From a virus, in IMG/VR virus record IMGVR_UViG_3300007512_000012, positions 46,938 to 110,937 of that record: a stretch of DNA of 64,000 nt; one strand, 5' to 3'. This document shows positions 19,767 to 54,147 of this stretch, piece after piece. Positions within the stretch are counted from its first letter, which is position 1; each line of letters opens with the position of its first letter. Both the position numbers and the translations under genes were made by a program. Below the pieces are notes generated by a model. The model was not told the DNA's origin. It did no database searches and saw only the letters and a program-made list of their open reading frames with translations.

Positions 19767-19833
19767 GGGCCATCTACTCCCTGCCCCGCCTCACGGAACC
19801 CCCTGGCCGGGTAGAACAAGGCAGGAGAACACC

Positions 19834-20436
19834 ATGACCAAGCCCCACGAACTCGTCGCCCTCATCGACATGGACGGCACCGTCGCCGACTTCGACGGAG
19901 CCATGCGACGGGACCTCGCCACCCTCACCAGCCCCGGCGAGCAGGTGATCGCCGCCGGACCGGACGACTCCGACGAGCCGCTCTGGCTGAAGGCCCGCAA
20001 GAAGCTCACCAAGACCCAGCCGGGCTGGTGGCGGAACCTGCCCGTGTACGGCATCGGGATGGCGGCCTACACCCACCTGCGCGTCGGGGATGTGCTCGCG
20101 GCACCACTCGACCTTCTCGGTCCACGCCTGCGTGCTGCGGTACGGCCCCTTGGTCAGGACCATCATCGTGAAGCCCGCGTCGCGCAGGTGACCATCACCG
20201 AGGACAAGGGCCTGGTCTACGGCAAGGTGCTGGTAGACGACTGGCCCGCCTACGGCATCCGCTGGTTGGAGTGGCGGCCTCGTGGCCTGCTGGTGGTCCC
20301 GGCCTGGCCCTGGAACACGCTCGACCAGTACCCCGAGCACCTACACCCGAACATCATCCGGCTCACCGGGGACTGGCCCACGGAGCTTCCCCTGCTGCTG
20401 GAGCGCATCGCGGCCATCAAGGAGAGCGCACGCTGA
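19834..20436 (+). CDS. HAD-family 5'(3')-deoxyribonucleotidase (NT5C-like) with an internally inverted segment
   Basis: IDMDGTVADF, WWRNLP, K...LVDD, PWN motifs; motif II and the WxEKxxW segment are encoded on the opposite strand at 20084..20180. Confidence 0.85.
   Translation: MTKPHELVALIDMDGTVADFDGAMRRDLATLTSPGEQVIAAGPDDSDEPLWLKARKKLTKTQPGWWRNLPVYGIGMAAYTHLRVGDVLAAPLDLLGPRLRAAVRPLGQDHHREARVAQVTITEDKGLVYGKVLVDDWPAYGIRWLEWRPRGLLVVPAWPWNTLDQYPEHLHPNIIRLTGDWPTELPLLLERIAAIKESAR
20074..20190. repeat. Perfect 10-bp inverted repeat bounding a 97-bp inverted segment
   Basis: cacctgcgcg (20074-20083) and cgcgcaggtg (20181-20190). Confidence 0.9.
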
Positions 20437-20448
20437 TCGGGGCGTCTT

Positions 20449-20490
20449 AAACGACGAAACCCACCGGCCTCCCGAAGGGGCTACGGTGGG
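20449..20490 (-). terminator. Terminator hairpin at the 3' end of the candidate ncRNA
   Basis: cccaccg tagcccc ttcg ggaggc cggtggg followed by tttcgtcgttt on the minus strand. Confidence 0.7.
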
Positions 20491-20921
20491 TCCGCAGATG
20501 ACTGTCACCGGCTGCGGCCTTGTGGGGCCGTTCCCGATGTTGTCCCCGTCCTCCCTTGGGAGGCCGACTTCCGCAACCGCTCTCGCGGGCTGCTTCCGCC
20601 AGACCGAGTCAGGTGAAGGTGATGGTCCCTTCTTCCTCGGCGTGGGTTTCGACCGGAGTTTCCTCCAGCCAGGTATTGGGCTTGAACCCCTCTACCCTGA
20701 CCCCTTGTTCAAGAGGGGTCCCATCGTTGAGGCCAGCGGCTAACTGACCCCCTACTCTGCCGCCTGCTCCCCTTGCCACGGGGTCGGCCTGCGGTAGAGG
20801 CCCCGCCGGGTTTCCCCTTTGGAGCGCGCCAGGATGGCTGTCCTGGCTTCCGGTTCGGGGTGACTGCGGTGCCTAGTCCCGTCTGCCTCGAACCGTGCCG
20901 CTCGGGTCTCCCCGTGCAGCG
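20449..20921 (-). ncRNA. Candidate large structured ncRNA (~470 nt), family unassigned
   Basis: No convincing ORF; dense hairpins capped by GAGA, GAAA, GCAA and UUCG loops on the minus strand; upstream promoter and a 3' terminator hairpin. Confidence 0.7.
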
Positions 20922-20927
20922 AGGGAG

Positions 20928-20956
20928 GTTCTAAACGACCTGGACTCGGGGGTCAA
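20928..20956 (-). promoter_or_regulatory. Sigma70-like promoter TTGACC-N17-TAGAAC with an upstream A-tract
   Basis: Exact 17-bp spacer; gaaaaaa tract ~15-20 bp upstream of -35. Confidence 0.65.
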
Positions 20957-20977
20957 GCGGTTCCCGAACTTTTTTCG

Positions 20978-21190
20978 TCAGCGACGAGTTCGGCGGGTGC
21001 GTGCCCGGAGGATTCGGTCAGCGTGTGCCTCGATGGCCCGGTTGATCCGGTTGTCGCTGAAGAAGGGGATCGGCTCTCCCCGGAGCATCCGGTGGGCCAG
21101 GGTCTTGATCTTCCCGAAGCGCATCATCCCGTCCAATCAGTTGTCGATGATGAGGGCGGCCAGCAGGTAGGTGATCGTGCGCGTCGTCAT
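20978..21190 (-). pseudogene. Small 70-codon ORF interrupted by an in-frame TGA (or a 49-aa ORF from ATG 21127)
   Basis: GGAG RBS; MTTRTITYLLAALIIDN*LDGMMRFGKIKTLAHRMLRGEPIPFFSDNRINRAIEAHADRILRARTRRTRR. Confidence 0.4.
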
Positions 21191-21552: not shown

Positions 21553-22425
21553 CTAGCGGGTGACGGTCAGGCGGGCGAGGCCGCGCGGGTTGTAGGCCCC
21601 GAGGCCCAGGTTCTCGAAGATCGAGAAGCCGATCATCCGGCGCTTCGGGTCGTCGGCCGACAGGACCGTCAGCTCGGTGCGGACCGGGATGCGGCCGAAC
21701 ATCTCCGGCTCGCAGCACAGGTACACCGTGCCGTTGGGCACGAGGCGGCTGGTGACGACGTTGGCCCCGTAGATGACCCCCTGGAGGCCCGTCTTCAGGA
21801 GCGTCGCCTGCGACTCGATGTCGAGGATGTCGCGGCCGAACTTGCGGATGTCCGCGTAGTCCCGCGCGTTCATGTAGATGCGGGCGACCCGGAGGTCGTG
21901 CCGCTCGATGAGCGCGAAGGCGTCCGCCAGCACCGCGCCCGAGATCGGGGCGATGACGGGGATGTCGGCGTTGAGCTGACCCGGCAGGGAGTCGAAGCCC
22001 GCCGTGGCGACGGCGTCGAGGACGGCGAAGACGCGCTCGTCCTCGGCGGCCTGGATCTGCGCCCGGCCGAGGTCCTGGGACCGCTCGATCAGGTCGAAGC
22101 GGCGCTCCTTGATCTGGGTGAGCGGGATCTCCGGGTTCGACGCGATCTCGAAGAGCGGGAAGATCACCCGGCGCGGCTTGGTGACCGCGAGGATGTTCTG
22201 GCCCTCTTCGCCGACCACGTAGGCGGTGATGTCGGGGTCCTTGTCGTAGATGGGCAGCGCACCGTCGGGGAGCTGCTCGACCAGGAAGGTCTTGCGGCCC
22301 ACGGCGGCGTAGTCCCGCCGCGTGCGGAGGGGCTGCGTCATCGACGCGGCGAGCTTGGCGCGACCCTGCGGGGTCTTGATGTACTCGCCGATGATCTTCT
22401 GCTTGACGGCGTTGGTGGCGTTCAT
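21553..22425 (-). CDS. Major capsid protein (HK97 fold)
   Basis: Follows protease, scaffold and decoration genes; strong RBS and codon bias; GRAKLAASMTQPLR..DY..VGRK.FLVEQLPDGALPIY, IQAAED, GxIYGANVVTSRLVP, final NPRG. Confidence 0.88.
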   Translation of the reverse strand: MNATNAVKQKIIGEYIKTPQGRAKLAASMTQPLRTRRDYAAVGRKTFLVEQLPDGALPIYDKDPDITAYVVGEEGQNILAVTKPRRVIFPLFEIASNPEIPLTQIKERRFDLIERSQDLGRAQIQAAEDERVFAVLDAVATAGFDSLPGQLNADIPVIAPISGAVLADAFALIERHDLRVARIYMNARDYADIRKFGRDILDIESQATLLKTGLQGVIYGANVVTSRLVPNGTVYLCCEPEMFGRIPVRTELTVLSADDPKRRMIGFSIFENLGLGAYNPRGLARLTVTR

Positions 22426-23351: not shown

Positions 23352-24869
23352 TCAGGAGAAGCTGCCGCTCACGTCCGGGTCGGAGGCCCAGAGGTTCGAC
23401 AGCTCGGCGATCTCGTTGCCGCCGCTGGAGGCGACCTTCGGGACCTGGCCGACCGACTTGACGCCCTTGGACGCCTTGCGGGCCTGCGGCTGGAGGATGG
23501 CCGCGAGGCTGGCCTCCTTGTCGCTGCCCTCGTCGTCGCCCTCGTCCTCGTCCTCGGAGCCGAAGACCTCGTTGAAGGCGGCCTTGTCGGCGGCCGTCAG
23601 CTCGGTCCCGTCCGAGAGGCCCATCGGGTCGAAGCCGGTGGCGAAGAACTCGGCGTCGGAGGCCTCCTTGTCGGAGCCGCCCTCGTCCTCGTCGTCGTCG
23701 CCGCCCTCGTCGTCGGAGCCCTCGTCGTCACCGCCCTCGTCGTCGGAGCCCTCGTCCTCGTCGTCCTCGGACTTCTTGGCGGCCTCCTTGTCGGAGCCCT
23801 CCTCGTCGTCCTCGTCGTCGGAGGCGTTCTTCGAGGCCATCACGTCGCCGCAGGCGATCTCGCCGTCGTCCACCAGCTCGTCGTCCATGCCGTACTGCAT
23901 GGCCTGGAGCATCTCCAGCTCGTCGTCGTCGAACTCGGCGACGTGGCCGAAGGCGGTCTTGTCGGACGCCTCCTTGTCGGAGCCCTCGTCGTCGTCGGAC
24001 TCGTCCTCGGAGCCCTCCTTCTTCTTGGCCTCGCACATCTCCTGCATCTTGCCGTCGAGCTTCTCGCAGCCCGCGAGGACCTCGGCCCGAGCGATGATGC
24101 CGTCGTTGTCGGTGTCGAGGGACGCGAACATGGCGCGGGGGCCGGTCCAGTCCTCGGCCGTCACGAAGCCGTCGCCGTCCAGGTCGAAGGCGTCGAACAT
24201 CGCCATGACGGGGTTCGCGGCCTTGTCCGAGACGGCCGCCTCTTCCTTCTTCGCCTCCTGCTCGGACTTGCCGGAGGTGCCGAGGGTCTCGCCGCCGGGG
24301 TCGTTCTGGTCGGCGCTCTTGAGCGCCTTCAGCTCGGCCTCCATCGCGGCCAGGCGGGCCTCCATCGGGTCCAGGGCCGGGGCCTCGTCCTCGGGGAACA
24401 TCCCGAGCAGCTCCTCCTCCATCGAGAGGAAGTCGCCGCCGAGGCGCTCGACCGAGGCCTCCAGGGCGGTGTCGTCCATGCTCATGTAGCCGAACGCCTG
24501 GTTCTCGATGTCGTCCCACGACGCGGTCTTGCCGAGCGTGGCCCGCGCGAGCACGAGGCACTTGGCCGACTTGCGCCGGACGAGCTGCATCAGGTTGGCC
24601 TGGCGGCCGACCTGCCCGGTGTGGGCCGGGTGGTCCTGGTCCTCGACCCCGTAGCCGGGCGTCGCGGGCGGGCCGCTGTCCCCGTAGGGCGGCGGGTGAA
24701 CGTCCTCGGCGAACTCCGAGGGGCCGCCGATGTTGTAGTCGTCCTTGCCCGGATCGTCCTGGGTGTGGGCCGGGTGGTCCTGGTCCTCGACTCCGTAGCC
24801 GGGGGTTGCGGGGGGAGCAGCCGCCTCACGGTCGAGGGCCGCCCACGTCATGCGCTGACGAGTGCTCAT
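23352..24869 (-). CDS. Putative capsid scaffolding protein, very acidic, with an EF-hand pair
   Basis: Between protease and capsid genes; Asp/Glu-rich repeats, repeated GSDKEA; loops DLDGDGFVTAED and DTDNDGIIARAE. Confidence 0.72.
   Translation of the reverse strand: MSTRQRMTWAALDREAAAPPATPGYGVEDQDHPAHTQDDPGKDDYNIGGPSEFAEDVHPPPYGDSGPPATPGYGVEDQDHPAHTGQVGRQANLMQLVRRKSAKCLVLARATLGKTASWDDIENQAFGYMSMDDTALEASVERLGGDFLSMEEELLGMFPEDEAPALDPMEARLAAMEAELKALKSADQNDPGGETLGTSGKSEQEAKKEEAAVSDKAANPVMAMFDAFDLDGDGFVTAEDWTGPRAMFASLDTDNDGIIARAEVLAGCEKLDGKMQEMCEAKKKEGSEDESDDDEGSDKEASDKTAFGHVAEFDDDELEMLQAMQYGMDDELVDDGEIACGDVMASKNASDDEDDEEGSDKEAAKKSEDDEDEGSDDEGGDDEGSDDEGGDDDEDEGGSDKEASDAEFFATGFDPMGLSDGTELTAADKAAFNEVFGSEDEDEGDDEGSDKEASLAAILQPQARKASKGVKSVGQVPKVASSGGNEIAELSNLWASDPDVSGSFS
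24618..24815 (-). repeat. Two 54-bp direct repeats encoding PPATPGYGVEDQDHPAHT
   Basis: 24618-24671 and 24762-24815; identical peptide with synonymous differences. Confidence 0.9.
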
Positions 24870-26332
24870 CGCTTCGTCTCCTTGCCTGTGGCGACTGCCA
24901 GGGATGGGTTCCTGCTCCCGTTGCGATCCTGGCCTCGCCGCGAGATGAGCTTGCCGAGCTTGATCAAGGTCTGTGCCTCGGCGGTTGTGGGCTTGCGGCC
25001 GAGCGCCGCTCGACAAGCCCGGAGGAATTGACTCGACGAGCTGTACTCGCCGATGTCGCCGAGCTGCGCAGCAGCCCGGTACACAGGCACGGGGATCTCC
25101 ACCCCGTACTCCGCGTGCAGTAGGGCCACCTTGTCCATCAGGTCGGTGTCGCTCGAAGCGTGCCGACAGAGGAAAGCCACAGTGGCGTCGTACACCGCCG
25201 CCTGCTTGACCACGTTGTCGTTGGGAGCCGCCGAAGACTCCTCGGGACCGAGGGCCTCGTCGAGGTCCTTCTGGTCCATGTCCTTCTTGAGCTTCTTCTT
25301 GACCCGATCCCGCATGTGATCGGTCAGCTCACGTTCCATGTCGTCGAACGGGCCGCCCTCGTCCTTCTTCTCGGCCGGGGCGTCCACGTCGTCGTCTTCG
25401 TCGCCCCACCCGGCCATGAAGTGGTCGCCGCCGAAGGCGAGGGCAGCGGCCTTGCGGCGGGTGCCCTTCGTCCACTCCTCCGGGGGAGTCGCGAGGATGG
25501 CCGAGGCGGCCTTGCCGAGCTTGTCGCCCTGGTGGATGGCGAGCACGTTGCGGAGGACCGCGCCCGTGAAGGCGGGGGTGCCGACCCAGGACGCCTCGAT
25601 GAAGTGGACGCCGCCGGTCGGGTCGAGGCTCGGGTGACCGCACAGCTCCGCGACGCGGTGCTGACGCCCCTGCTCGTCGAAGAAGACGTTCCCCTTCTCG
25701 TACTTGATGTGGGGGCACATCTCCGTCTCGTCGGCGGCCCAGTGCCCGCACTTCGTGCAGATGGTGCCATCGACGGTGCAGCCCATCGACAGGGTGCCCA
25801 TCTTGCCGGACTCGATGGCCTCGACCAGGTCCGCGTGCTTGCGGTCCGTGGCGATGAGGATGTCCACGTAGACCGAGTCGCCGATGTCGCGAGCGACCGC
25901 GTCGATGACCCGGCCCTTCGACAGCTCCTCGACCTGGACGTGCTCGACGAAGTTCTGCGCCCCGATGAAGGTCCGGTAGCTCTTGAGCAGAACGTCCCGG
26001 TCCCAGGCGTCGAGGTTGTTGTTGATGAACTTGTCGCAGCCGAGCTTGACCCGGAACTTGCCGTACTTCCGGTTGATCCTGAAGCCGCCCTCGGAGTGCT
26101 TGCCGAGCTTCGTGTTCGGCGGCTCGAAGGTGTCCACCGACGCCACGATGGTCGCGTGGGTCAGCAGGTAGTCGCTCGGGTTGAAGGGCTTGCCGAAGAT
26201 CTCCGACGCGCGGTCGATGAGGTTCTCCGACACCTCCGCAGCGGCCTTGGCGGCCGTGCGAACCTTCGCCCAGCCCGCACGTCCGACGTGCGGGGTGACG
26301 ACCTCAGCCCTGGCGTACTTCAGGAAGGCCAT
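24866..26332 (-). CDS. Prohead (maturation) protease with Cys-rich insertion
   Basis: NNNLDAW, TFIGAQNFVEH (His), KGRVIDA, LSMGC (Ser), CTKCGH...CPH, FIEASWVGTPA; fits HK97/assemblin-type protease motifs. Confidence 0.82.
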   Translation of the reverse strand: MAFLKYARAEVVTPHVGRAGWAKVRTAAKAAAEVSENLIDRASEIFGKPFNPSDYLLTHATIVASVDTFEPPNTKLGKHSEGGFRINRKYGKFRVKLGCDKFINNNLDAWDRDVLLKSYRTFIGAQNFVEHVQVEELSKGRVIDAVARDIGDSVYVDILIATDRKHADLVEAIESGKMGTLSMGCTVDGTICTKCGHWAADETEMCPHIKYEKGNVFFDEQGRQHRVAELCGHPSLDPTGGVHFIEASWVGTPAFTGAVLRNVLAIHQGDKLGKAASAILATPPEEWTKGTRRKAAALAFGGDHFMAGWGDEDDDVDAPAEKKDEGGPFDDMERELTDHMRDRVKKKLKKDMDQKDLDEALGPEESSAAPNDNVVKQAAVYDATVAFLCRHASSDTDLMDKVALLHAEYGVEIPVPVYRAAAQLGDIGEYSSSSQFLRACRAALGRKPTTAEAQTLIKLGKLISRRGQDRNGSRNPSLAVATGKETKR

Positions 26333-28109: not shown

Positions 28110-31100
28110 TCAGGCCACCAGGTCTTGCTCGTCCTCCGAAAGAACCGCTTTTTCCATCGCCGTGAACTCATCAGGCGACATCTGCTCGATTCTTTTTCGC
28201 TCGGCGGGGTCCTTCACATTTTCGAGAAAGTCCCGCTTCCGCTCCTCGGGCGACCGCTCCGGTCGCACTGAAGGGTCGTCCAGCAGCGAGAGGTCTGCCC
28301 CACCGGCCACGGCCCGCAGCACTGCAACCGCCGTGTCCTGCGCGTCGGGCTCCACGTCCATGTCGTCGATGGCGTCGGCCGTCGCCTCGGCCTGTGCCCG
28401 GACCACAGCTTCCCGCGACCGCTTCATGCACTCGGCCTGCGTCTTGCCCTCCTCCAGGCACGCCTGGAGGGCCTCATCGACCGCCGAATCCACGGCCTCG
28501 CGGGTCTTGTCCTCCACCTCGTCCGCCGTCTGGTCGAACAGCTCGGGGAGGTTGGCGGGGTCCCGCTTCTTCCTGGTGATGGCCGCCGCGACGCCCTGCA
28601 CGGTGGTCATGTGCATCACGCCCATGTCGCGGATCATGGCCCGCAGGTACTCCTGCACCTCGGGAGCCATGTCCGGGTTGTCGGCGAGCGCCTTGACCAG
28701 CGGCTCCCACGAGGTGCCCTCGGAGATCGCCGCCAGGCCCTCGTCGTCGAGCTTGCCCATCGCGTCGCGGACAGCCGCCCGGCCCTCCGCCGCGTAGACC
28801 TTCGACGAGTCCTTCAGGAACAACACCTCGGCGTTGCCCTGCTTGACCATCTGCTTGAGCACCAGCTTGAGCTTGCTGTTGAGCGGCTCCCGCACCAGGC
28901 GGCCGTCCGGGTGCTTCGCGTCGAAGTCCTCGTCGTTGAGCACCGCCGCCGCGTGGATGCCGTCGATGATCGCGTTCAGCTCGTCGTGCTCGGGGCTGCC
29001 CTTCTCGAAGTCACCGAGCTTCGCCGCCGCGTCCTCGGCCACCTGCCTTCGCTGGTCCGGGCTCACCCGCCGGTAGAGCTTCATCGCCTGCATCGCCCGT
29101 TCGGTCCGGGCGTCATCGTCGAGCTGCTCGGAGGAGAGGGGCTGGCCGCCGACGTTGGTGGGGTCGAGCAGCAGGGCCTCCTGGGCCTTCGCCTGGACCA
29201 CGGCCTCGGCCAGCTCGTCGATGTCGTCCCCGTCCACGCCCTTGAAGGGGTCCTTCGCGATGTCCTTCATCGCCGACACCGTCACGCCGAAGTCGTCGAA
29301 CAGCTCGCGGAGCTGCTTCATCTCCGCCTTGTACGCCGCATGGAACTCGGCCGAGTCGGCCTTCTCCATGAGCAGCAGAGCCGTCTCCTCCGTGATGACC
29401 TTGTCCCCGTAGAGCTTCTCGGCCAGGTCGGTGATCTCGGCCGTGAACTTCTCCTTGTCGGCCTTCGCCTGCTCCTTCTTCTTGGCCTCGTCCTCCTTGG
29501 CCTTCTCGGCCACGGCTTCCTCGGCCTCCTCCGGGGAGTCGGCGTCGCCCTTCGCGTAGGCCTCGGCCTTCGCCTTCGAGTCCTTGTCCTTGCCGAAGTC
29601 GTTGCGCACCTGGCCCTTCGCGTTCATCGCGTTCCAGGTGCCGTCGTCGGACGGCCACACGTCGCCGGGCTTGCGCTTCTGGCTCGGCTCGCCCTCGGCC
29701 ATCAGCCAGCGGAGAGCGACGCGGTTGGCGGCCAGGGTCGCCCGCTTCTTGTAGTTGTTGCTCAGGTCCCGGTCGCCGTCCGCCCCGAAGCCCTCGATGT
29801 CCGGGTCGTCCTCCTTCATCCGGTTCCGGCGGAGATCGCGACGCGGGGGCTTCTTCGTGGGGTTGCGGCGGTTGAGGCGCTCGACCTCCTCCTCTTCCTT
29901 CTCGGCCTTCGACTTCGTGGCCCGCCGGGTCATCAGGGTGTGCCCCTGCTCCCGACCTGTCTCCACGAACCCTCGCTGCTTGAGCATCCGAACCGCGTGC
30001 GGGTTCACCGCATCGAGGCAGAACTGGATGTCGGGGAACGGCTCGACCAGGTCGTCGTACTGGCTGATGGCGATGTCCATCAGCTTCCCTCCGAGCCCCC
30101 TTCGCTGCCAGCCATCCGGGTCCACGACGATGTCGAAGGCGTAGCACTCCTGGTCACCCGAATCCGACGAGTCGAACAAGGCAGCCACGAGCTTGCCCCC
30201 GGCCTCGTACCCCGCCACGAAGTCCATGTGCGACAAGATGTTGATCCCGGCCTTCTGTGCCAGCTTCCACGGGTCGGAACCTCGCGGAGCCCGCCAGACC
30301 AGGCGGGGAGACGCCCCCTCGACGAACCACCTGGCGGCCAGGCGACGGGTGGCCTGCTTGTAGAGCTGCCGCTTGCCGATGAGCTGCCAGGACAGGCCGA
30401 TCTTCCCGTCCTCTGCGTTGCCGAGGTAGCCCGCCCCCTGAAGCTCGGTGACCACGTCGGGCATCACCGGGTAGCCCCGCCAGGTGAACGTGCCGTCGTC
30501 CGCCACCAGGATGTGCTCGGCACCCCCGGCGGCCCGGTCCATGTCGTTGATGAGCGCCCACTCGTAGGCGGTCAGGCTGGAGATCAGCCCCTCGAAGCCC
30601 ACCAGGCTGACCAGCGGGTCCGGGCTGGTGTAGCCCACCTCCTCCGGCCAGGCGTTGTAGATGGAGATGATGGCGACCTTGTCGGCCGCGAGGCGCATCG
30701 GGTGACGAAGACCGTAGACGCCGTGCGCCCGGTTCCGCCGCTTCTCCGACTGCATCGAGCCCTTCGCCATGCTGTACCACTGGCGGCCGGTCCGCCAGAC
30801 GTAGCCGATGAGCCCGCCGCCGAGGTCCTTCTCGGGGTCCTCGTTCACGCTGGTCATCTCGGACTCGCCCCACCCGAAGACCGCGACGATCTCGTCGGCT
30901 CGGCCGAGGATCTGCCGCAGGCCCCACGAGAGCCGCCCCTGCTTGTCGAGCTTCTCCTTGACCGTGCCGTCCCGCATGAAGGTGTCTTCGAGGCCCGGCA
31001 CGAGGTACTGGCTGCGGAGCGTGCTGGCCTCGTGCCCCACCTCCTTGGCCGCCTCATCGAGCGCCTGCTGGAACTCCTTCTTGAGCTTCTGCTCCCGCTC

Positions 31101-34100
31101 CTTCTTGTCGGTCGGGAGCTTGCCGCCCTTGCCCCGGATGGCCTTGAGCCGGGTCTGGACTTCGCGGTTGGCGTGCAGCCCCCGGATGTCCTTCGCGGTG
31201 ATGCCGTGGGGCTTCAGGTAGGCGTTCACGTCGCCTGCCTCGACGCCCTCGAACACGGGGTCGGTGCCGGACTTGCCCTTCAGGGCCTCGCGGAGCCCGC
31301 TGACCAGGCCGGAGTCGCTGGTGGTCTTCGTCTGGCTCACCCCGGACTTGCCGACGTACTTGATGGTCGCCTTGCCGCCGGAGAGGGTGACGTGCTTCGC
31401 CTGCCAGCCGGTGACCCCGAAGTGGCCGTCCTTCGCCGAACCGGGGTTGCCGACCCGCTCGTAGGTGTCGTTCATCAGGCCCACGGCCAGGGCGCACAGC
31501 CGGGTCTTCTCGTCCTTCGACTTGAGGTCCTTGCCGATCTGGCCGCGCAGCTTGTCGAGGTTCTGCCGGAGCTTCTCGACCTTCTTCGCCTTCTCGCGGT
31601 TGCGGTGCTGGACCTGGCCCTCGCTGTACTCGTAGACCGTGACCTGCTCGCCCTTCTGGTTCTTGACCTTCTTCTTCGTGCCCTTGGCCGCCGTCTTCAG
31701 GCCGCCGGGCAGGGTCGGTGCCCGGAGCACGGCGATGACGTTGCCGGAGGAGGGGAAGTCGCGCGCGAGGCTCTTCCACACCCGCCCGGCAGCGGTGCTG
31801 GTGCCGGAGCCGCCGGAGCACTCGTAGGGCATGAACAGGAAGGGGCCGACCTTCTTGAACCACTCGACCATGACGGCCAGGTACATCGCCTTGCCGATGC
31901 CGAGGCCCTGCTTGCTCTCGTCGGTGATGAACGCCTTGTAGACCTGGAGGGCTCGGGTGTTCGTCCGCTCCTCCCCGTCGCTCGCCACCCACCGAGGTCG
32001 GCTGGTGTCCTCGACCTGCGGGTACTTCGCCAGCAGCTTCAGGACATCCCGCCCACACGTCTCCCGCTCGGGGTAGCGCATCACGCTGGCGTGGAGCCCG
32101 CCGATGGGGGCTCGGCCGTAGTAGACGCCTGCGAGGATGGCGTCGCTGTCGGACTTGACCCGGTACTTGACCTTGTTGCCCTCGTGCTCCATCAGCGGGG
32201 TGTTCGGGCCGAACCGCTGCGCGTACCGGGAGGCCACCCGGTCCACGAGCATCCTGTGGATCTCGACCTCGCCCGCTTCACCGCGAGGCAGGGCCGGGCG
32301 GCCCTGGCCGTAGAGCGGCATCGTGCTGTCCACCGGAGACGGCTGCGTCTCGGCCAGCAGGTGCAACGGAACGATCGTCTCCTCCTCCCCGGACGCCTGC
32401 ACGGCGTCGGCGAACTGCCTGTTGAACAGCAGGGCGAGGGAGTCGATGGGGACGCTCTTCGTGATGTCGTCGGCACCGACTTCGAGGACGACGCGGTGCA
32501 TGGTCGCCTGGTTGTAGCGGTCGCACAGCCGCCGGATGGCCGCGTTGGCCTCCTTCGACTGCCCCACAGCGTCCACAGCCTCGTTGAGCGAGTCCTGCAC
32601 CATCTGCGCGAGGGCGTCCTCGGTCAGCTCGCCGCCCACCTTGCTGACGCCGAACCGGGCTTCGAGCTTCTTGTCGAGCAGCTTGGTGGCCTCGGCGACC
32701 ACCTTCTTCGCGAAGATGTAGCCGGGCGGGGGCGGGATCGCGACGTACATGGCGGCGTTGATGCCGCCCTTCATCACCTCGCGGATGAGCAGCCGAGCGA
32801 TGCGGGCACGCTCCTTCGGGTCTGGCACGTCGCCCTTGAGGAGCTTCGCCACCCCGGAGGCCACGTCCTTGCCCCGCTCGACCTTCCGCTTGATGACCTT
32901 CTTCGCGATAGCCGCTGCACCGCTGACGGCCGACCGCAGCTTCCCGCGCTTCGGCTTGTCATCCTCGGCCTCGGGCGCGTCGTCGGTGACGGTGTGGTTC
33001 TTCGGGTCAGCTCCAGGGTGCTCCCGCAGGTACTCCTTGCGGGCCTCGTCCGTGCCGAACTCACGAGCGGACTTCTCCGCCTTGTCGCGGGCGGCCTGGT
33101 CCTTGTCGTAACGGACCTTGAAGAGCTTGACCTCCTTCTTGGCCCCCTGCCCGCCCTGGTCCTTCTTCGGACGCTTGCGAACGATGACCGTGGGGTCGCC
33201 CTTCTCGTTCTCGCCGAAACCCTCGATGCGGCCGGGGCTGTTGAGGTACTTGCCCGTGAACAGCGGGTCGCCGATCTCCAGCTCGAACTTCTTCGCCGTG
33301 CGGGACAGCGGGTACGTCTCGGGCTTCGCCATCCCCCACACCGCCAGGCCCTCGACCGTCCACGAACCCGTGGGCACCTGGCCCTCGTACTTCGAGTCGA
33401 GCCCGTCCAGGTAGGCGAGGGTGATGTGCGGGTTGTAGATGAGGAGCGAGCGGTCCTTCAGGGCGAACCCGGCATCGGTCAGCCGAACCCGGATGCCGTC
33501 TCGAAGCTGGTCCATGTACCCGTCGAACCGCACCGGGCAGTACGCCACTCGGCGTTCCTTCTCCGGGTGCTCGAAGTAGTCGAGGGGCTGGATGGTGGCC
33601 CGCATCGGCCGGTACTGGCTGGCCTCGGCCTGCACGGCTGCCAGGAACTCGGCCTCTCGCCCGCGCACGTCCCCCACGTAGAGCAGCGTGCAGTGGGGCG
33701 GGCTGTCGTCCTCGTCGCCGAGGCTCGGGAACTTCGCGGCCAACTCCTCCGGCAGCGGGAGCATCAGCCCCACCTTCGCCCCGGAGCCCTTCACGGCCGC
33801 CGTGCGAGCTGCCTTCCAGCCCTGGCTCCGCCGCTCGTCGGTCGGCAGGCCGACCTCCTGGCCGGAGTCGAAGCCGATGTAGGCCCACCCGTCGCCCGCC
33901 TCGATGCTCGTCACCTGGTCGCCCTCATCGGGGAACCAGGTCGGGGCCATCGCCGCCGTGCGGCCACCCTGAAGGTCGAGCCTGACGCGCTGCGTCAGCC
34001 GCCGCTTGTCGGTCACGAGGGACGGACTGTCGAGCAGGTGACGGCGAGCCAGGTCGGTGACCTGGCTGATCTGGCCGCCCCGGAGCCCGAACTCCTTGAT

Positions 34101-36527
34101 GAGCGACCGCATGTCCAGCACCTTGCCGGGCTGCTTGAGGGCCGCGATGAACTGGTCGGTGGCGTCAAACGACAGGTCCACCGCGATCTCCCGCAGGCGG
34201 GCGACCTGGTAGCGGTCGAGGAACCCGAGCCGCTTCCCGCTCGGGAGCCCCATGTCCATCATCGCGAACAGGGCATCCGAGCGCGTCTCATCGGCCACGT
34301 TGAACAGGGCGTTCGCCATCGCCCCGTTGCTCTGCGCGATGTCCTTGATCTCGTCGAGCAGCCCGAGCCGCTGCATCTCCTCCAGAGCCTTCTTCGCAGT
34401 GGGCTCCCGCAGGAGATCGACGAGCATGGTGCTCAGGTGGCCCGGCTTGATGTTCTTGAGCTTGCCCTTGTGCCGCCGGATGGCCGCCTCGGTGTCGGGC
34501 GTCAGCTTGAAGCCGTACTTCACGATGAACTTGATGGCCCGGACCATGCGGGTCGCGTCGTCGGTGAAGGTCTTGTCCGGGCTGGACGGGCACTTCATCG
34601 AGCCCGCCGCCAGGTCGGCGAGCCCGCACCCGGTCAGGTCGATGATCTCGGCCTTGTCCGGGCCGTTCGCCAGGTCTTGCAGCCGCCACATCAGCGTGTT
34701 GTGGACCACCACCCCGTTCGCCACGAAAGCAGGCTCGACCCCCTCGCCCATCGAGATGTCGAATACGTCCTGCTGCCCCGCATCCTCAACCGACGTGACC
34801 TCGACGTACTGGTAACCGAGGTCGAACAACCGCTGGAGCTTGGCAAACTCGTCCGGGCTGATGGCCTTGAGGCTCGCCAGGAACCCGTCGAAACCCCCTC
34901 GGGCATGAGCATCGTGGAGAAGCCGCTGAACCTTCCGAACAGGCTCATGGACATCGGGGAGGGTTCTGAACCCATCCCCGTCCGTGGCGTAGACGGCCCG
35001 GCTGGTGTCCTGCTTCCGCCCGGCAAGGAACCCCCGAATGTACTCTGCGGGGATGCCGTAGCGGTTGCGGGCTTTGTTGTCCCGCCGGGTGTAATCGAAC
35101 CCCTTGGTGACCATCCACGGTTGGATTTTCTCCCACAGGAGAGCCGAATCCACAGCGTTGATGTAGACGAACCTGCCCTTCACCTTGCTCAAAATGCCGT
35201 GAGCACCGAGAAGCACCTGCAACTGCTGGCGAACATGGGGGGACGCCGAGCAGTAGGTGATACGCCCCGTCTCGGGCCGGATCGAGCCGTCACCCTCCAG
35301 ATAGGCCGCAAGAAACGCCCACTGACTTCGCTCGTCAGCTTGCAGGATGGACCACGGGACGATCTTGTGGTGGGAGGCTGACTTGCCGTCCTTGGACCCC
35401 CCGCAGTACAGGCCGAGGTCTTCCAGCCATCCGACCACGGCCTTGCTGTCGGCGTAGATGTCGTAGCCGTCTGCGCTGGCGACAAACTCCACCCCACGCA
35501 AGATGCGGACGGACCCCTTCTCGACCACCTTGTTGCGGGAGGGCTGGAACCCGAAGGTGGCGTGGAAGCACTCGACGTAGTGGGAGATGAGGGCTGGATC
35601 AGAGTTGCTGAACGACACCCGCTTGTGGGTGTTCGACCCCTCGGCCACGATGCACCCGATCAGGAACGCCAGTTCGGGCGTCATCCTCTCAGGCTTGCGG
35701 ACATCCTTGAGTCGCCCACGCTTGGGCTGTACCGGATCGGGCAGGTCGAGAGCAAGGGGCGTCCGCCTCGCCACCTGCCGCACGGGCACACAGAGCAGGT
35801 CACCTTCCTCAAGCTGGTCCGCCTGAACCCACTCGTGGTCGTGGCCCCGAAGGACCAGAACCGGATGGTGGGGCGTGCAGGAGAAAGAATGACCCCACTC
35901 AGTCGTCACCCGCAGGGTGGGGGCGTAGCCGCTGTACTGCCACCCCACAGCAGTCGAAGGGCCGTCCTGCCCCGCCACGGTCAACCGGATGTCCTGATGA
36001 TCCCCCCCGTCACGAGAGGCGATCTGGTCGATGCGGAGGATGCCCTTCTCAGTAGGGATTAGGGTGTCCCCGGCCATGCAGTTGAAGGTGAACTCGCGGC
36101 GACGGGCGTCGTCCTCGATGGTCGCCTTCTCGACGTGCGTGGGCTTGTACCCGCCGTCCGTGTAGGACTCGATGCGGGCGTTGGCGATCTCGATGTCCTC
36201 GCCCTGGAGGTTCTCCTCCCCGAGCATCCAGTCGCCCACGATGTGCAGCAGGGCGACGCCGTAGTCGTTGGTCTGGATGCGGGTCTTCGCGGGGATGGCC
36301 TTGGCGACCTCCTTGGCGAACCAGTCGGAGTCCTTGCCGCGCAGGGCCACCGAGTCGATGACCACGTCGATGTCCTTGATCGGGCGGCGGATGACGAAGT
36401 TGCGGACGGCCCCGCCCACGACGTAGACGTGCCTGCCGACCCCCAGGCGCTTCGCCAGGTCCGACAAGAACTTCATCAGCGCCAGGGACGCCGAGCTGCT
36501 CATCGCGATGTGGGTCGGCACTGCCAC
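28110..36527 (-). CDS. 2805-aa multi-enzyme polyprotein: CCA-type nucleotidyltransferase with intein, 2H phosphoesterase, GNAT, topoisomerase IB, GNAT and unknown domains
   Basis: VGGAVRN/KDIDV/RRREFTFN/DDATRMVRAIKF; HCTL and HITL; KQGLGIG; ERVGN/GKSG/KDIR/VGH/RSQY; QRRGLGG. Confidence 0.88.
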   Translation of the reverse strand: MAVPTHIAMSSSASLALMKFLSDLAKRLGVGRHVYVVGGAVRNFVIRRPIKDIDVVIDSVALRGKDSDWFAKEVAKAIPAKTRIQTNDYGVALLHIVGDWMLGEENLQGEDIEIANARIESYTDGGYKPTHVEKATIEDDARRREFTFNCMAGDTLIPTEKGILRIDQIASRDGGDHQDIRLTVAGQDGPSTAVGWQYSGYAPTLRVTTEWGHSFSCTPHHPVLVLRGHDHEWVQADQLEEGDLLCVPVRQVARRTPLALDLPDPVQPKRGRLKDVRKPERMTPELAFLIGCIVAEGSNTHKRVSFSNSDPALISHYVECFHATFGFQPSRNKVVEKGSVRILRGVEFVASADGYDIYADSKAVVGWLEDLGLYCGGSKDGKSASHHKIVPWSILQADERSQWAFLAAYLEGDGSIRPETGRITYCSASPHVRQQLQVLLGAHGILSKVKGRFVYINAVDSALLWEKIQPWMVTKGFDYTRRDNKARNRYGIPAEYIRGFLAGRKQDTSRAVYATDGDGFRTLPDVHEPVRKVQRLLHDAHARGGFDGFLASLKAISPDEFAKLQRLFDLGYQYVEVTSVEDAGQQDVFDISMGEGVEPAFVANGVVVHNTLMWRLQDLANGPDKAEIIDLTGCGLADLAAGSMKCPSSPDKTFTDDATRMVRAIKFIVKYGFKLTPDTEAAIRRHKGKLKNIKPGHLSTMLVDLLREPTAKKALEEMQRLGLLDEIKDIAQSNGAMANALFNVADETRSDALFAMMDMGLPSGKRLGFLDRYQVARLREIAVDLSFDATDQFIAALKQPGKVLDMRSLIKEFGLRGGQISQVTDLARRHLLDSPSLVTDKRRLTQRVRLDLQGGRTAAMAPTWFPDEGDQVTSIEAGDGWAYIGFDSGQEVGLPTDERRSQGWKAARTAAVKGSGAKVGLMLPLPEELAAKFPSLGDEDDSPPHCTLLYVGDVRGREAEFLAAVQAEASQYRPMRATIQPLDYFEHPEKERRVAYCPVRFDGYMDQLRDGIRVRLTDAGFALKDRSLLIYNPHITLAYLDGLDSKYEGQVPTGSWTVEGLAVWGMAKPETYPLSRTAKKFELEIGDPLFTGKYLNSPGRIEGFGENEKGDPTVIVRKRPKKDQGGQGAKKEVKLFKVRYDKDQAARDKAEKSAREFGTDEARKEYLREHPGADPKNHTVTDDAPEAEDDKPKRGKLRSAVSGAAAIAKKVIKRKVERGKDVASGVAKLLKGDVPDPKERARIARLLIREVMKGGINAAMYVAIPPPPGYIFAKKVVAEATKLLDKKLEARFGVSKVGGELTEDALAQMVQDSLNEAVDAVGQSKEANAAIRRLCDRYNQATMHRVVLEVGADDITKSVPIDSLALLFNRQFADAVQASGEEETIVPLHLLAETQPSPVDSTMPLYGQGRPALPRGEAGEVEIHRMLVDRVASRYAQRFGPNTPLMEHEGNKVKYRVKSDSDAILAGVYYGRAPIGGLHASVMRYPERETCGRDVLKLLAKYPQVEDTSRPRWVASDGEERTNTRALQVYKAFITDESKQGLGIGKAMYLAVMVEWFKKVGPFLFMPYECSGGSGTSTAAGRVWKSLARDFPSSGNVIAVLRAPTLPGGLKTAAKGTKKKVKNQKGEQVTVYEYSEGQVQHRNREKAKKVEKLRQNLDKLRGQIGKDLKSKDEKTRLCALAVGLMNDTYERVGNPGSAKDGHFGVTGWQAKHVTLSGGKATIKYVGKSGVSQTKTTSDSGLVSGLREALKGKSGTDPVFEGVEAGDVNAYLKPHGITAKDIRGLHANREVQTRLKAIRGKGGKLPTDKKEREQKLKKEFQQALDEAAKEVGHEASTLRSQYLVPGLEDTFMRDGTVKEKLDKQGRLSWGLRQILGRADEIVAVFGWGESEMTSVNEDPEKDLGGGLIGYVWRTGRQWYSMAKGSMQSEKRRNRAHGVYGLRHPMRLAADKVAIISIYNAWPEEVGYTSPDPLVSLVGFEGLISSLTAYEWALINDMDRAAGGAEHILVADDGTFTWRGYPVMPDVVTELQGAGYLGNAEDGKIGLSWQLIGKRQLYKQATRRLAARWFVEGASPRLVWRAPRGSDPWKLAQKAGINILSHMDFVAGYEAGGKLVAALFDSSDSGDQECYAFDIVVDPDGWQRRGLGGKLMDIAISQYDDLVEPFPDIQFCLDAVNPHAVRMLKQRGFVETGREQGHTLMTRRATKSKAEKEEEEVERLNRRNPTKKPPRRDLRRNRMKEDDPDIEGFGADGDRDLSNNYKKRATLAANRVALRWLMAEGEPSQKRKPGDVWPSDDGTWNAMNAKGQVRNDFGKDKDSKAKAEAYAKGDADSPEEAEEAVAEKAKEDEAKKKEQAKADKEKFTAEITDLAEKLYGDKVITEETALLLMEKADSAEFHAAYKAEMKQLRELFDDFGVTVSAMKDIAKDPFKGVDGDDIDELAEAVVQAKAQEALLLDPTNVGGQPLSSEQLDDDARTERAMQAMKLYRRVSPDQRRQVAEDAAAKLGDFEKGSPEHDELNAIIDGIHAAAVLNDEDFDAKHPDGRLVREPLNSKLKLVLKQMVKQGNAEVLFLKDSSKVYAAEGRAAVRDAMGKLDDEGLAAISEGTSWEPLVKALADNPDMAPEVQEYLRAMIRDMGVMHMTTVQGVAAAITRKKRDPANLPELFDQTADEVEDKTREAVDSAVDEALQACLEEGKTQAECMKRSREAVVRAQAEATADAIDDMDVEPDAQDTAVAVLRAVAGGADLSLLDDPSVRPERSPEERKRDFLENVKDPAERKRIEQMSPDEFTAMEKAVLSEDEQDLVA
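34698..36080 (-). mobile_element. Intein (461 aa) with LAGLIDADG homing endonuclease
   Basis: Starts CMAGDT, block B TPHHPV, LIGCIVAEGS and LAAYLEGDGS, ends FVANGVVVHN followed by Thr; more A/T at third codon positions than the flanks. Confidence 0.93.
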
Positions 36528-52290: not shown

Positions 52291-53013
52291 CTACTGGAAG
52301 GCCCGCCGCACTCCTGCGACGCCTCCCTGGTTCCAGATTTCGCCGGGGTCCTTGCCCCGGTAGCGAATGCTCACCGCTTTCACATCTACCCGCTCAAGGC
52401 GCTTCAGGGCTCCCCACCGCTCCTTGCCGTTGTCGTCGATGAACCCGTGGGTGCCATGCTGCCCCGCCTCGTCGTTGTCGTACACCATCCGCACCCACCC
52501 TCGGCAGAAGCGGCGGAGGAACTCGACGTGCTTGTCGGTGAGCTTCGCCCGCAGGCTGGCGAGCACCACGTCGCTCTCGGGGATGACCCACTCCATCGCG
52601 AAGAGGTCGAAGAACCCCTCGACGATCCACACGTCCGCCCCGTCCCAGATGCGCTGCATCGTCTCCGGGGTCAGGCCGAGCCAGAGAGGGTGCCACCCGG
52701 CCTCGGGCAGCAGGTAGCGGGTGACCTTCTTCTCGGGGAGGCGGCGGCCCTCGAACCCGAGGATGCGGCCTCGGGCACTGAACAGCGGCCAGACGGCCCA
52801 GCCTTCCAGGTGCTCGCCGACGCCCTTGCCGCCGTACTCCAGGGACGAGTACCGCTCGCGGAACGTCGGGTCGGGGGAGGGCTCCGACAACACCTGCCAG
52901 GTCTTGATCCCGTGCCGGGCGATGGACTCCTCCGAGGCTCCCCGGCCGAGGAAGTACCCCTCGTGGGCTTCAGCCAGCGGGAGGTTCGGCAGGTGGTTCG
53001 TCAGCCAGGTCAT
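52291..53013 (-). CDS. DnaG-type primase core (TOPRIM), no zinc-binding domain
   Basis: GFEGR, IVEGFFD, YDNDEAG, GKDP. Confidence 0.85.
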   Translation of the reverse strand: MTWLTNHLPNLPLAEAHEGYFLGRGASEESIARHGIKTWQVLSEPSPDPTFRERYSSLEYGGKGVGEHLEGWAVWPLFSARGRILGFEGRRLPEKKVTRYLLPEAGWHPLWLGLTPETMQRIWDGADVWIVEGFFDLFAMEWVIPESDVVLASLRAKLTDKHVEFLRRFCRGWVRMVYDNDEAGQHGTHGFIDDNGKERWGALKRLERVDVKAVSIRYRGKDPGEIWNQGGVAGVRRAFQ

Positions 53014-53659
53014 CGGGGGCGGGTCCTCGGGCGATGGCGATGCCGCGTGCGGCGTTGTGGACCACCCCCGCGTACTGCTTCGTCGTCACCTGCACCACCA
53101 GCCCGACGAAGGAACGGTCCTTCGGCACCACGATGATCGTGTCGTCCGGCACCCACGAAGAAGGCCGGAACGGGAGGCCAGTGCTTTCGATGAGCGGGCG
53201 AAGCTCAGGCGGCATCAGGTCCACTGGCTCTACCCGCTGGCCGTCCTCCTCGACCCCCTCCCCTTCATCGGTGGGGTCGAGCAGTGCCACCTCGGTCGCC
53301 TGGTGGGCTCGGGGGGTCAGCAGCTCCAACGGCCCCAGCTCGTAGAACTCGACGTGCGCGATGGCCTCCCGCAGCCCCTCGATGGTCAGCGGGTGGGAGT
53401 TGCCCCACTGCTGCTGCCGACCCATCGCCTCCACGGCCTCGACGATCTCGGCGAAGAACGCCCCCACCGTCATGTTCCGCACGGCGGCCTTCACGACGGG
53501 TCCGGGGTGGGCCTCGTTGATCCACATGACCGAGGACGAGGACGACACCAGGTACGGGGCCGTCTCCTCTGCGACGGTGAACTCCAGCATCAGCGGGACG
53601 GTGCCCCGCCGCTTCATGGCCTGCGAGGCGAGTCGCTGGAACAACAGCAGGTGGCTCAT
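52970..53659 (-). CDS. Hypothetical protein
   Basis: Coupled to its neighbours; C-terminus faintly like the MCP C-terminus. Confidence 0.65.
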   Translation of the reverse strand: MSHLLLFQRLASQAMKRRGTVPLMLEFTVAEETAPYLVSSSSSVMWINEAHPGPVVKAAVRNMTVGAFFAEIVEAVEAMGRQQQWGNSHPLTIEGLREAIAHVEFYELGPLELLTPRAHQATEVALLDPTDEGEGVEEDGQRVEPVDLMPPELRPLIESTGLPFRPSSWVPDDTIIVVPKDRSFVGLVVQVTTKQYAGVVHNAARGIAIARGPAPDDLADEPPAEPPAG

Positions 53660-54147
53660 CAGCCCCCTCCCAACTTCTTGCGGAGCGACGGCCACCAACC
53701 TGACGGCTCGGAGTCCTCGTCGTCCTCAGCTTCTTCGAGGGCAGCCTCGACATCGGCCTCGCTGGGCATCTCGTCGGGGTCGTCGAGCACCCACATCAAG
53801 GCGGCCACGTCGGGGAAGCTCGCTGCGATGAGGCCCCTGTTGCCGGACTGCACGATGGCGTGGAACTCCGACTTCACCTGGGCCTTGGTCTTGAGCGGCT
53901 CCCACAGGGGGCACTCGCGGGCCATGTCGTCGCAGCCGGGGAGCCGGGAGTCGCAGGGGACCATGCGGGACTGACCGGAGGCGTTGAGGACCCCGCAGAG
54001 GTTGACGCACACGCCGTCCGCCAGCTCCCACTCCCGGTTGTGGCAGCAGGTGTCCGGGCGCTGCTTGAACAGCGCACGCAGCCGCTTCTGGAGGTGCCGG
54101 TAGGTCACCTGCTTGAGCTGATGTCGGATCTGGCTCTGTGACCGCAT
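53659..54147 (-). CDS. Cys-rich hypothetical protein
   Basis: PDTCCHN...CVNLC...PCD...CP. Confidence 0.7.
   Translation of the reverse strand: MRSQSQIRHQLKQVTYRHLQKRLRALFKQRPDTCCHNREWELADGVCVNLCGVLNASGQSRMVPCDSRLPGCDDMARECPLWEPLKTKAQVKSEFHAIVQSGNRGLIAASFPDVAALMWVLDDPDEMPSEADVEAALEEAEDDEDSEPSGWWPSLRKKLGGG

Follow-up and report, generated by a model that had tools for sequence, protein, structure and literature searches.

The locus examined here raises the question of why a phage gene whose flanks agree with a well-conserved nucleotidase family carries a middle section that fits no member of it, and whether this section marks a reversible switch, a dead allele or an error of assembly. We analysed a window of 64,000 nt, bases 46938-110937 of a 110,937-bp IMG/VR virus record (GC 67.7%) that by the CheckV estimate makes up ~25% of its genome, put at ~440 kb. 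The six runs in which the phage sequence occurs (X1-X6, from two studies) were marine or seawater metagenomes, and the genes around the locus belong to the late structural set of a very large phage and lie on the minus strand. From its ORF, homologs and alignments, the gene (19834..20436, plus strand, 200 codons and a stop) was assigned to the NT5C-type 5'(3')-deoxyribonucleotidases of the HAD superfamily. The N-terminus MTKPHELV, read from the ATG at 19834, agreed with homolog starts, and an AGGAG located 6 nt 5' of this ATG (19823..19827, plus strand) reads as a probable Shine-Dalgarno-like element.

The misfitting section was delimited by a perfect 10-bp inverted repeat. Its left arm, CACCTGCGCG (20074..20083), covers codons H-L-R and one further base, and its right arm, CGCGCAGGTG (20181..20190), covers one base and codons A-Q-V; the two are exact reverse complements and can be extended to 16 nt at 88%. 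Together with the arms, the block at 20074-20190 measures 117 nt and corresponds exactly to codons 81-119, hence it is codon-aligned. It was found open both as written (VGDVLAAPLDLLGPRLRAAVRPLGQDHHREARV) and when reverse-complemented (DAGFTMMVLTKGPYRSTQAWTEKVEWCREHIPD), in agreement with the first-pass annotation, according to which length and frame are kept with no stop either way. Homology to the family switched strand at the left arm and normal homology resumed at TITEDK just after the right arm, which places the two breakpoints exactly at the repeats. The true coding sense of the 97-nt spacer (20084..20180), DAGFTMMVLTKGPYRSTQAWTEKVEWCREHIPD, therefore lies on the minus strand, where it holds VLTKGP (HAD motif II) and the WTEKVEW helix.

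Comparison with the family directly identified the block as an exact reverse complement, with no base gained or lost. Database searches with the gene flanks returned 384 matching proteins, nearly all of those listed carrying PF06941, and the homologs read HLR-DAGFTLMVLTKGP..STQAWTEKVxWCRxHxPDA-xVTITEDK across the region, which is the reverse-complement reading of the window nearly letter for letter. In tblastn comparisons the flipped gene outscored the as-written gene by 50-70 bits at all 31 of 31 related loci; at the closest relative, L007, the flipped version reached 335 bits and 79% identity versus 261 bits and 67% as written. Counting a column as conserved when at least 12 of 13 homologs agreed gave 76 such columns, and the as-written protein departed from 14 of them, 12 inside the block. 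Flipping returned all 12, including HAD motif II, leaving departures at I59T and I154V only, and the protein had the same length as its homologs with a gapless alignment at the block. The proposal that an inversion between 20074-20083 and 20181-20190 recodes the nucleotidase core, and that flipping restores motif II (VLT) and a WxEKxxW segment, was thus borne out by the related loci, the alignment and the 12 conserved columns.

Base composition gave the same answer. GC at the three codon positions of the block was 1.00/0.5/0.55 (GC1/GC2/GC3) versus a genome mean of 0.65/0.46/0.93, which is the signature of codon-aligned antisense DNA (log-likelihood gain 28.6). A codon-position GC scan of the record found this signature inside a real gene at the block only and detected no other inverted block in real genes. 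We attributed the remaining stretches flagged by the scan to spurious antisense ORFs, or to misplaced starts, over real genes on the minus strand, as at 52721-53974(+). We also dismissed as a gene the 188-aa minus-strand ORF at 19774-20340, because at 68% GC an antisense frame is usually open and likeness to anything known was confined to its 39 central residues.

Neither the repeat nor the double openness of the block is in itself significant; the significant fact is that homology switches strand exactly at the repeats. The record contained 54 pairs of perfect 10-bp inverted repeats with a spacer of 20-150 nt, versus ~40 in random sequence, and a repeat of this size and spacing is therefore commonplace here. 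Since TTA, CTA and TCA codons together account for only 0.13% of codons in this genome, inverting a 39-codon block in frame leaves it open in 95-96% of cases. The statement that both orientations are open, which headed the first-pass annotation, is accordingly true, yet carries no weight, as it is expected ~95% of the time at this GC. In its present form the left junction (20074-20092) also pairs, at 84% over 19 nt, with a site 126 nt upstream in the same gene (19929-19947); this further, imperfect inverted repeat is probably a by-product of the inversion.

Chimeras classically form at short inverted repeats, and the sequence comes from a metagenome assembly; we therefore considered whether the phage gene is truly canonical and the block was created by assembly or amplification, through an inverted chimera of the MDA type or an erroneous join at the repeat. 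An in-place inversion of this kind requires two exact junctions, and the same block was obtained from independent data. Logan, an independent assembler, produced from run X1, possibly the source sample, a contig of 13,983 nt at depth 12.3 that spans the whole region with 0 differences and no break. From run X5, a 321-nt contig covers 19885-20205 with 0 differences and crosses the left junction, its two flanks there measuring 199 nt and 122 nt. X5 belongs to a different study from X1; as the two studies share their year and resemble each other in habitat, they may be parts of one campaign. Run X4 had no contig over 19812-20178.

The block was also recovered at the protein level. The 90% protein cluster of the gene had five members from JGI, ENA and Logan contigs, namely P0121, which is the window allele, P0001 (T2P) and P0123 (T59I), on contigs of 111,540, 1,020 and 55,226 nt, and the truncated P0122 and P0124. 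The inverted block was identical in every member reaching it, P0122 starting just past it, and the inversion has therefore been inherited across at least three haplotypes and several samples. With another assembler, a second study and three distinct protein haplotypes all reproducing the block, we rejected the artefact that the first-pass annotation had listed as an option and regard it as highly improbable. The two truncated proteins have starts close to the repeats: P0122 (82 aa, ENA contig of 4,582 nt) begins at a GTG inside the right arm and P0124 (125 aa, ENA contig of 6,248 nt) begins at Met76, just 5' of the left arm. Either contig ends or differences upstream at the inversion may account for these starts.

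Two main readings of a real inversion were then weighed. In one, a recent, heritable, one-off in-frame inversion between short repeats has turned the gene into a hidden pseudogene; in the other, the gene is a reversible ON/OFF switch, an intragenic inverton captured in its OFF state, inverted by an invertase from the phage or host encoded elsewhere or by recurrent recombinase-independent spacer inversion. The switch would account for perfect arms lying exactly at the breakpoints, for a flipped reading that is fully intact and for the presence of both orientations in the environment; recoding intragenic invertons do occur in bacteria (10.1101/2023.03.11.532203), and spacer inversions can revert (PMC8604942). 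The intactness of the flipped block, of which a single re-inversion would restore an intact enzyme, sits less easily with a one-off event, although it is predicted by recency and by a switch alike, and the perfect arms do persist as a substrate for re-inversion.

Relatives of the phage pointed to the one-off event. The four closest (L007, L008, L009 and L022) share the upstream genes, and L008 also the downstream non-coding region, which makes their loci orthologous; all four carry the canonical orientation, as do all other related loci. The inverted state was thus confined to three near-identical haplotypes, all of which share the broken orientation, with outgroups in the ancestral orientation. 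The first-pass annotation had suggested checking whether homologs conserve the repeat, and they do not: the longest inverted match at the homologous positions measured 6 bp for L007 and ranged over 3-7 bp among 12 further relatives. This makes the repeat a coincidence of the HLR and AQV codons, specific to the lineage.

A search for a dedicated recombination system extended the earlier remark that no invertase is visible in the window. Six-frame searches of the 110,937-bp record, ~25% of the genome, found no resolvase/invertase (PF00239), tyrosine recombinase (PF00589) or large serine recombinase (PF07508) domain, whereas control genomes responded; a recombinase may be encoded elsewhere in the genome. 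The 10-mer had two more copies in the record, both unpaired, and no paired site recurred; together with the lack of further inverted blocks and the chance expectation for two open frames, this speaks against a switch. In protein database searches with the as-written query, no relative of canonical orientation exceeded 68% identity. Among shorter proteins no near-identical canonical-orientation fragments were found, and a search of the 41-aa minus-strand translation against proteins of 22-72 aa found nothing.

The sole canonical-orientation sequence found close to this phage was a 193-nt contig of run X3 at depth 2.6, in which the reverse complement of 20075-20190 is followed by 20190-20252; flanks of the as-written type occur alongside it in the same run. 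It was ~95-97% identical, with ~5 differences and a 14-nt tail differing at 8 positions, three of these changes being synonymous at third positions (TAC>TAT, GGC>GGG, ATC>ATT). These differences and the unlike tail indicated that it derives from a co-occurring diverged relative or strain rather than from the same genotype flipped. Its tail after YGI reads CAC GAG (H E) where the nucleotidase family has invariant R143 W144, which points to strong divergence of the copy or else to a contig tip of low depth.

The start of the X3 contig coincides with the outermost base of the repeat, and a de Bruijn graph would be expected to break there if both junction types were present in that sample. Taken with the starts of P0122 and P0124, this is a hint that assemblies break at the repeats as if both junction types co-occur; against it, the X1 contig runs through the region unbroken. 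The comparison was made on contigs, which drop rare variants, and an opposite orientation may exist as a minority within one strain. With an unconserved repeat, no recombinase in the record and no genotype seen in both orientations among the contigs, the phase-variable ON/OFF switch put forward in the first-pass annotation drew no positive support, and we consider a reversible switch unlikely. Its functional extension, in which this giant marine phage would reversibly toggle a nucleotide-pool enzyme and its population would keep active and inactive states, seems a shade more doubtful still. The one-off inactivating inversion, also among the options listed there, fits all of these data, from the unconserved repeat and the canonical relatives to haplotypes that are all inverted alike, and we regard a recent one-off inversion that produced a hidden pseudogene as the probable explanation, presumably with no appreciable rate of flipping back.

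We next turn to what the inversion would do to the protein. The canonical homolog P0003 aligned to human cytosolic deoxyribonucleotidase 4L57 at DMDG, VLTKGP/ICTSP (motif II), EKVEW/EKYRW, TEDK/TRDK and VDD/IDD. In the window protein, HAD motif I (DxDxT) was present at residues 12-16 as DMDGT, which nearly all aligned homologs share and which aligns with DMDGV in 4L57, and the motif III lysine and motif IV acidic pair were intact 3' of the block (TITEDK and LVDD, aligned to LTRDK and LIDD). In contrast, motif II, VLTKGP, with the Thr/Ser that ends strand 2, was absent as written, residues 87-96 reading VLAAPLDLLG; T93, K94 and P96 were lost and were regained only in the reverse complement. Judging from these alignments, the inversion would remove the motif II strand with its threonine and the following helix of the HAD core, while motifs I, III and IV remain.

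Profile and structure predictions agreed with this loss. The as-written protein had no PF06941 match at E<=1 in Pfam and fell below the Pfam threshold, whereas the 39-aa flipped block alone gave a weak match to PF06941 positions 81-111; a six-frame PF06941 search of the record found nothing at E<=0.1, and thus no second NT5C copy in the record. In AlphaFold models built from the same 14-sequence alignment, pLDDT was 40-53 at residues 91-130 of the as-written protein and 78-95 at residues 81-120 of P0003, both models being poor at about residues 121-134. Because 33 residues, including the motif II threonine strand and the helix, are turned into nonsense, the gene product is most likely inactive, and the gene, otherwise intact apart from the inverted block, would be a hidden pseudogene.

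One could instead propose that the recoded 33 residues form a working protein of altered function that selection has kept, for which the intact ORF and the spread of the allele to several samples might be cited. Yet no family matches the recoded block, which stands in place of a buried core strand bearing a catalytic-motif residue and is modelled at the low pLDDT given above; its open frame is expected by chance, and an invariant isoleucine has since been lost. We therefore hold such neofunctionalisation to be very improbable. The isoleucine concerned is that of codon 59 (20008-20010), where the window allele has Thr (KLIK > KLTK) and where Ile occurs in 13 of 13 aligned homologs and in the inverted allele P0123, which is identical in all other respects. 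As Ile59 is kept in an inverted allele, the inversion predates the T59 substitution; a substitution at such an invariant position would fit a constraint that relaxed once the inversion had occurred, T59 being one data point.

The following course of events would account for the locus. The gene would be the local ortholog of an NT5C-type deoxyribonucleotidase carried at this place by giant phages of the group, and in a recent ancestor the 97 nt enclosed by a chance pair of 10-bp inverted repeats would have inverted in place without gain or loss of a base. No stop would have arisen because the block is codon-aligned and the genome is nearly free of TTA, CTA and TCA, and the ORF would therefore still look whole around its 33 nonsense residues as the allele spread to several haplotypes and samples. 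The route was likely recombinase-independent, by template switching during replication ("spacer inversion") or by short-homology recombination. Inversions at short repeats were reportedly described in 1992 by Schofield, Agbunag and Miller (Genetics 132:295).

The nearest precedent is an E. coli antitoxin gene in which a fixed 24-bp intragenic inversion between 8-bp repeats scrambled the product (Goldberg et al. 2014, PMC4272514). Like the phage block, it is an in-place inversion between short perfect repeats in coding sequence that keeps length and scrambles residues, and it is homogeneous and heritable without a site-specific recombinase, as also seems to apply to the phage allele, judged by its contigs. 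The phage inversion differs in occurring in an uncultured giant phage and in size, at 97 nt (117 nt with arms) versus 24.

Template-switch spacer inversions at inverted repeats in coding DNA, with spacers of 2-5 nt and one or two residues changed (Abraham and Hazkani-Covo 2021, PMC8604942), provide a second comparison. As in this Ripley-type quasi-palindrome mutagenesis, the perfect ~10 bp arms are unchanged, the spacer is an exact reverse complement and the event is reversible in principle, such inversions being revertible by a second template switch. In contrast to these cases, the phage spacer measures 97 nt and 33 residues are changed. This length, far beyond the documented template-switch spacers of 2-5 nt (PMC8604942) and 24 nt (PMC4272514), is a point against a simple one-off template switch; it makes double-strand-break or short-homology recombination equally plausible, so that either template switching or short-homology recombination could have been the route.

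The recoding intragenic invertons of gut bacteria, for example the 57 bp in BT0375 (Chanin et al., bioRxiv 10.1101/2023.03.11.532203 / PMC10028968), resemble the phage block in layout only, with inverted repeats within one gene and in-frame recoding. In those invertons both orientations coexist in clonal populations and inversion is presumed to be driven by an invertase, whereas the phage record yielded no invertase, the repeats are unconserved and, among sequences close to this phage, canonical orientation was met only in the diverged X3 contig. Measured against the NT5C family itself (PF06941; human cdN 4L57 and 2I7D, mdN 4MUM, and jumbo-phage homologs), the gene aligned over its full length when flanks were combined with the flipped block, while the protein as written lacked motif II and the helix that follows it. 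NT5C homologs among deposited phages came from genomes of 344-595 kb, one example being the 'putative 5'3'-deoxyribonucleotidase' of Cronobacter phage GAP32.

As a biological event the inversion is small, an accessory nucleotide-metabolism gene of an uncultured giant phage having apparently been knocked out by an ordinary rearrangement, although its 97-nt spacer is much longer than those of the spacer inversions documented so far. Its wider bearing lies in annotation. Where GC is high, an ORF still looks intact ~95% of the time after an in-frame inversion, and gene callers and databases consequently list dead genes as whole proteins; public protein collections carry the scrambled protein described here as a five-member cluster of 200 aa. 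A GC-by-codon-position signature combined with a strand switch of homology at short repeats offers a cheap way of detecting such hidden inversions. Should both orientations be found in the same haplotype, the locus would represent an intragenic switch in a phage metabolic gene and be considerably more interesting.

Several features of the neighbourhood were observed in passing. A blastn comparison of the locus with deposited phages gave no match, and neighbouring genes were mostly blank in Pfam and PHROGs. Identifiable among them were the major head protein (21553-22425, minus strand; phrog_2522, E=4e-48) and, in the late structural region, a 2805-aa multi-domain protein (28110-36527, minus strand). 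In the head-gene region, a 554-aa protein (23352-25016, minus strand) carries a single EF-hand calcium-binding loop of canonical type (residues 271-290; PF00036, E=7e-9) and matched no other family. The nucleotidase gene is the sole convincing plus-strand gene within the minus-strand late structural run at 8201-36527, where a crude gene call also listed a doubtful 91-aa plus-strand ORF at 20895-21170. Rfam and tRNA scans around the nucleotidase gene found nothing, and no Rfam family matched the gene-free stretch downstream of it (20437-21000). The divergent arrangement of the nucleotidase and its upstream gene is also kept in L007, L008, L009 and L022, and the gene-free stretch shares 72% identity over 342 nt with L008:2745-3071.
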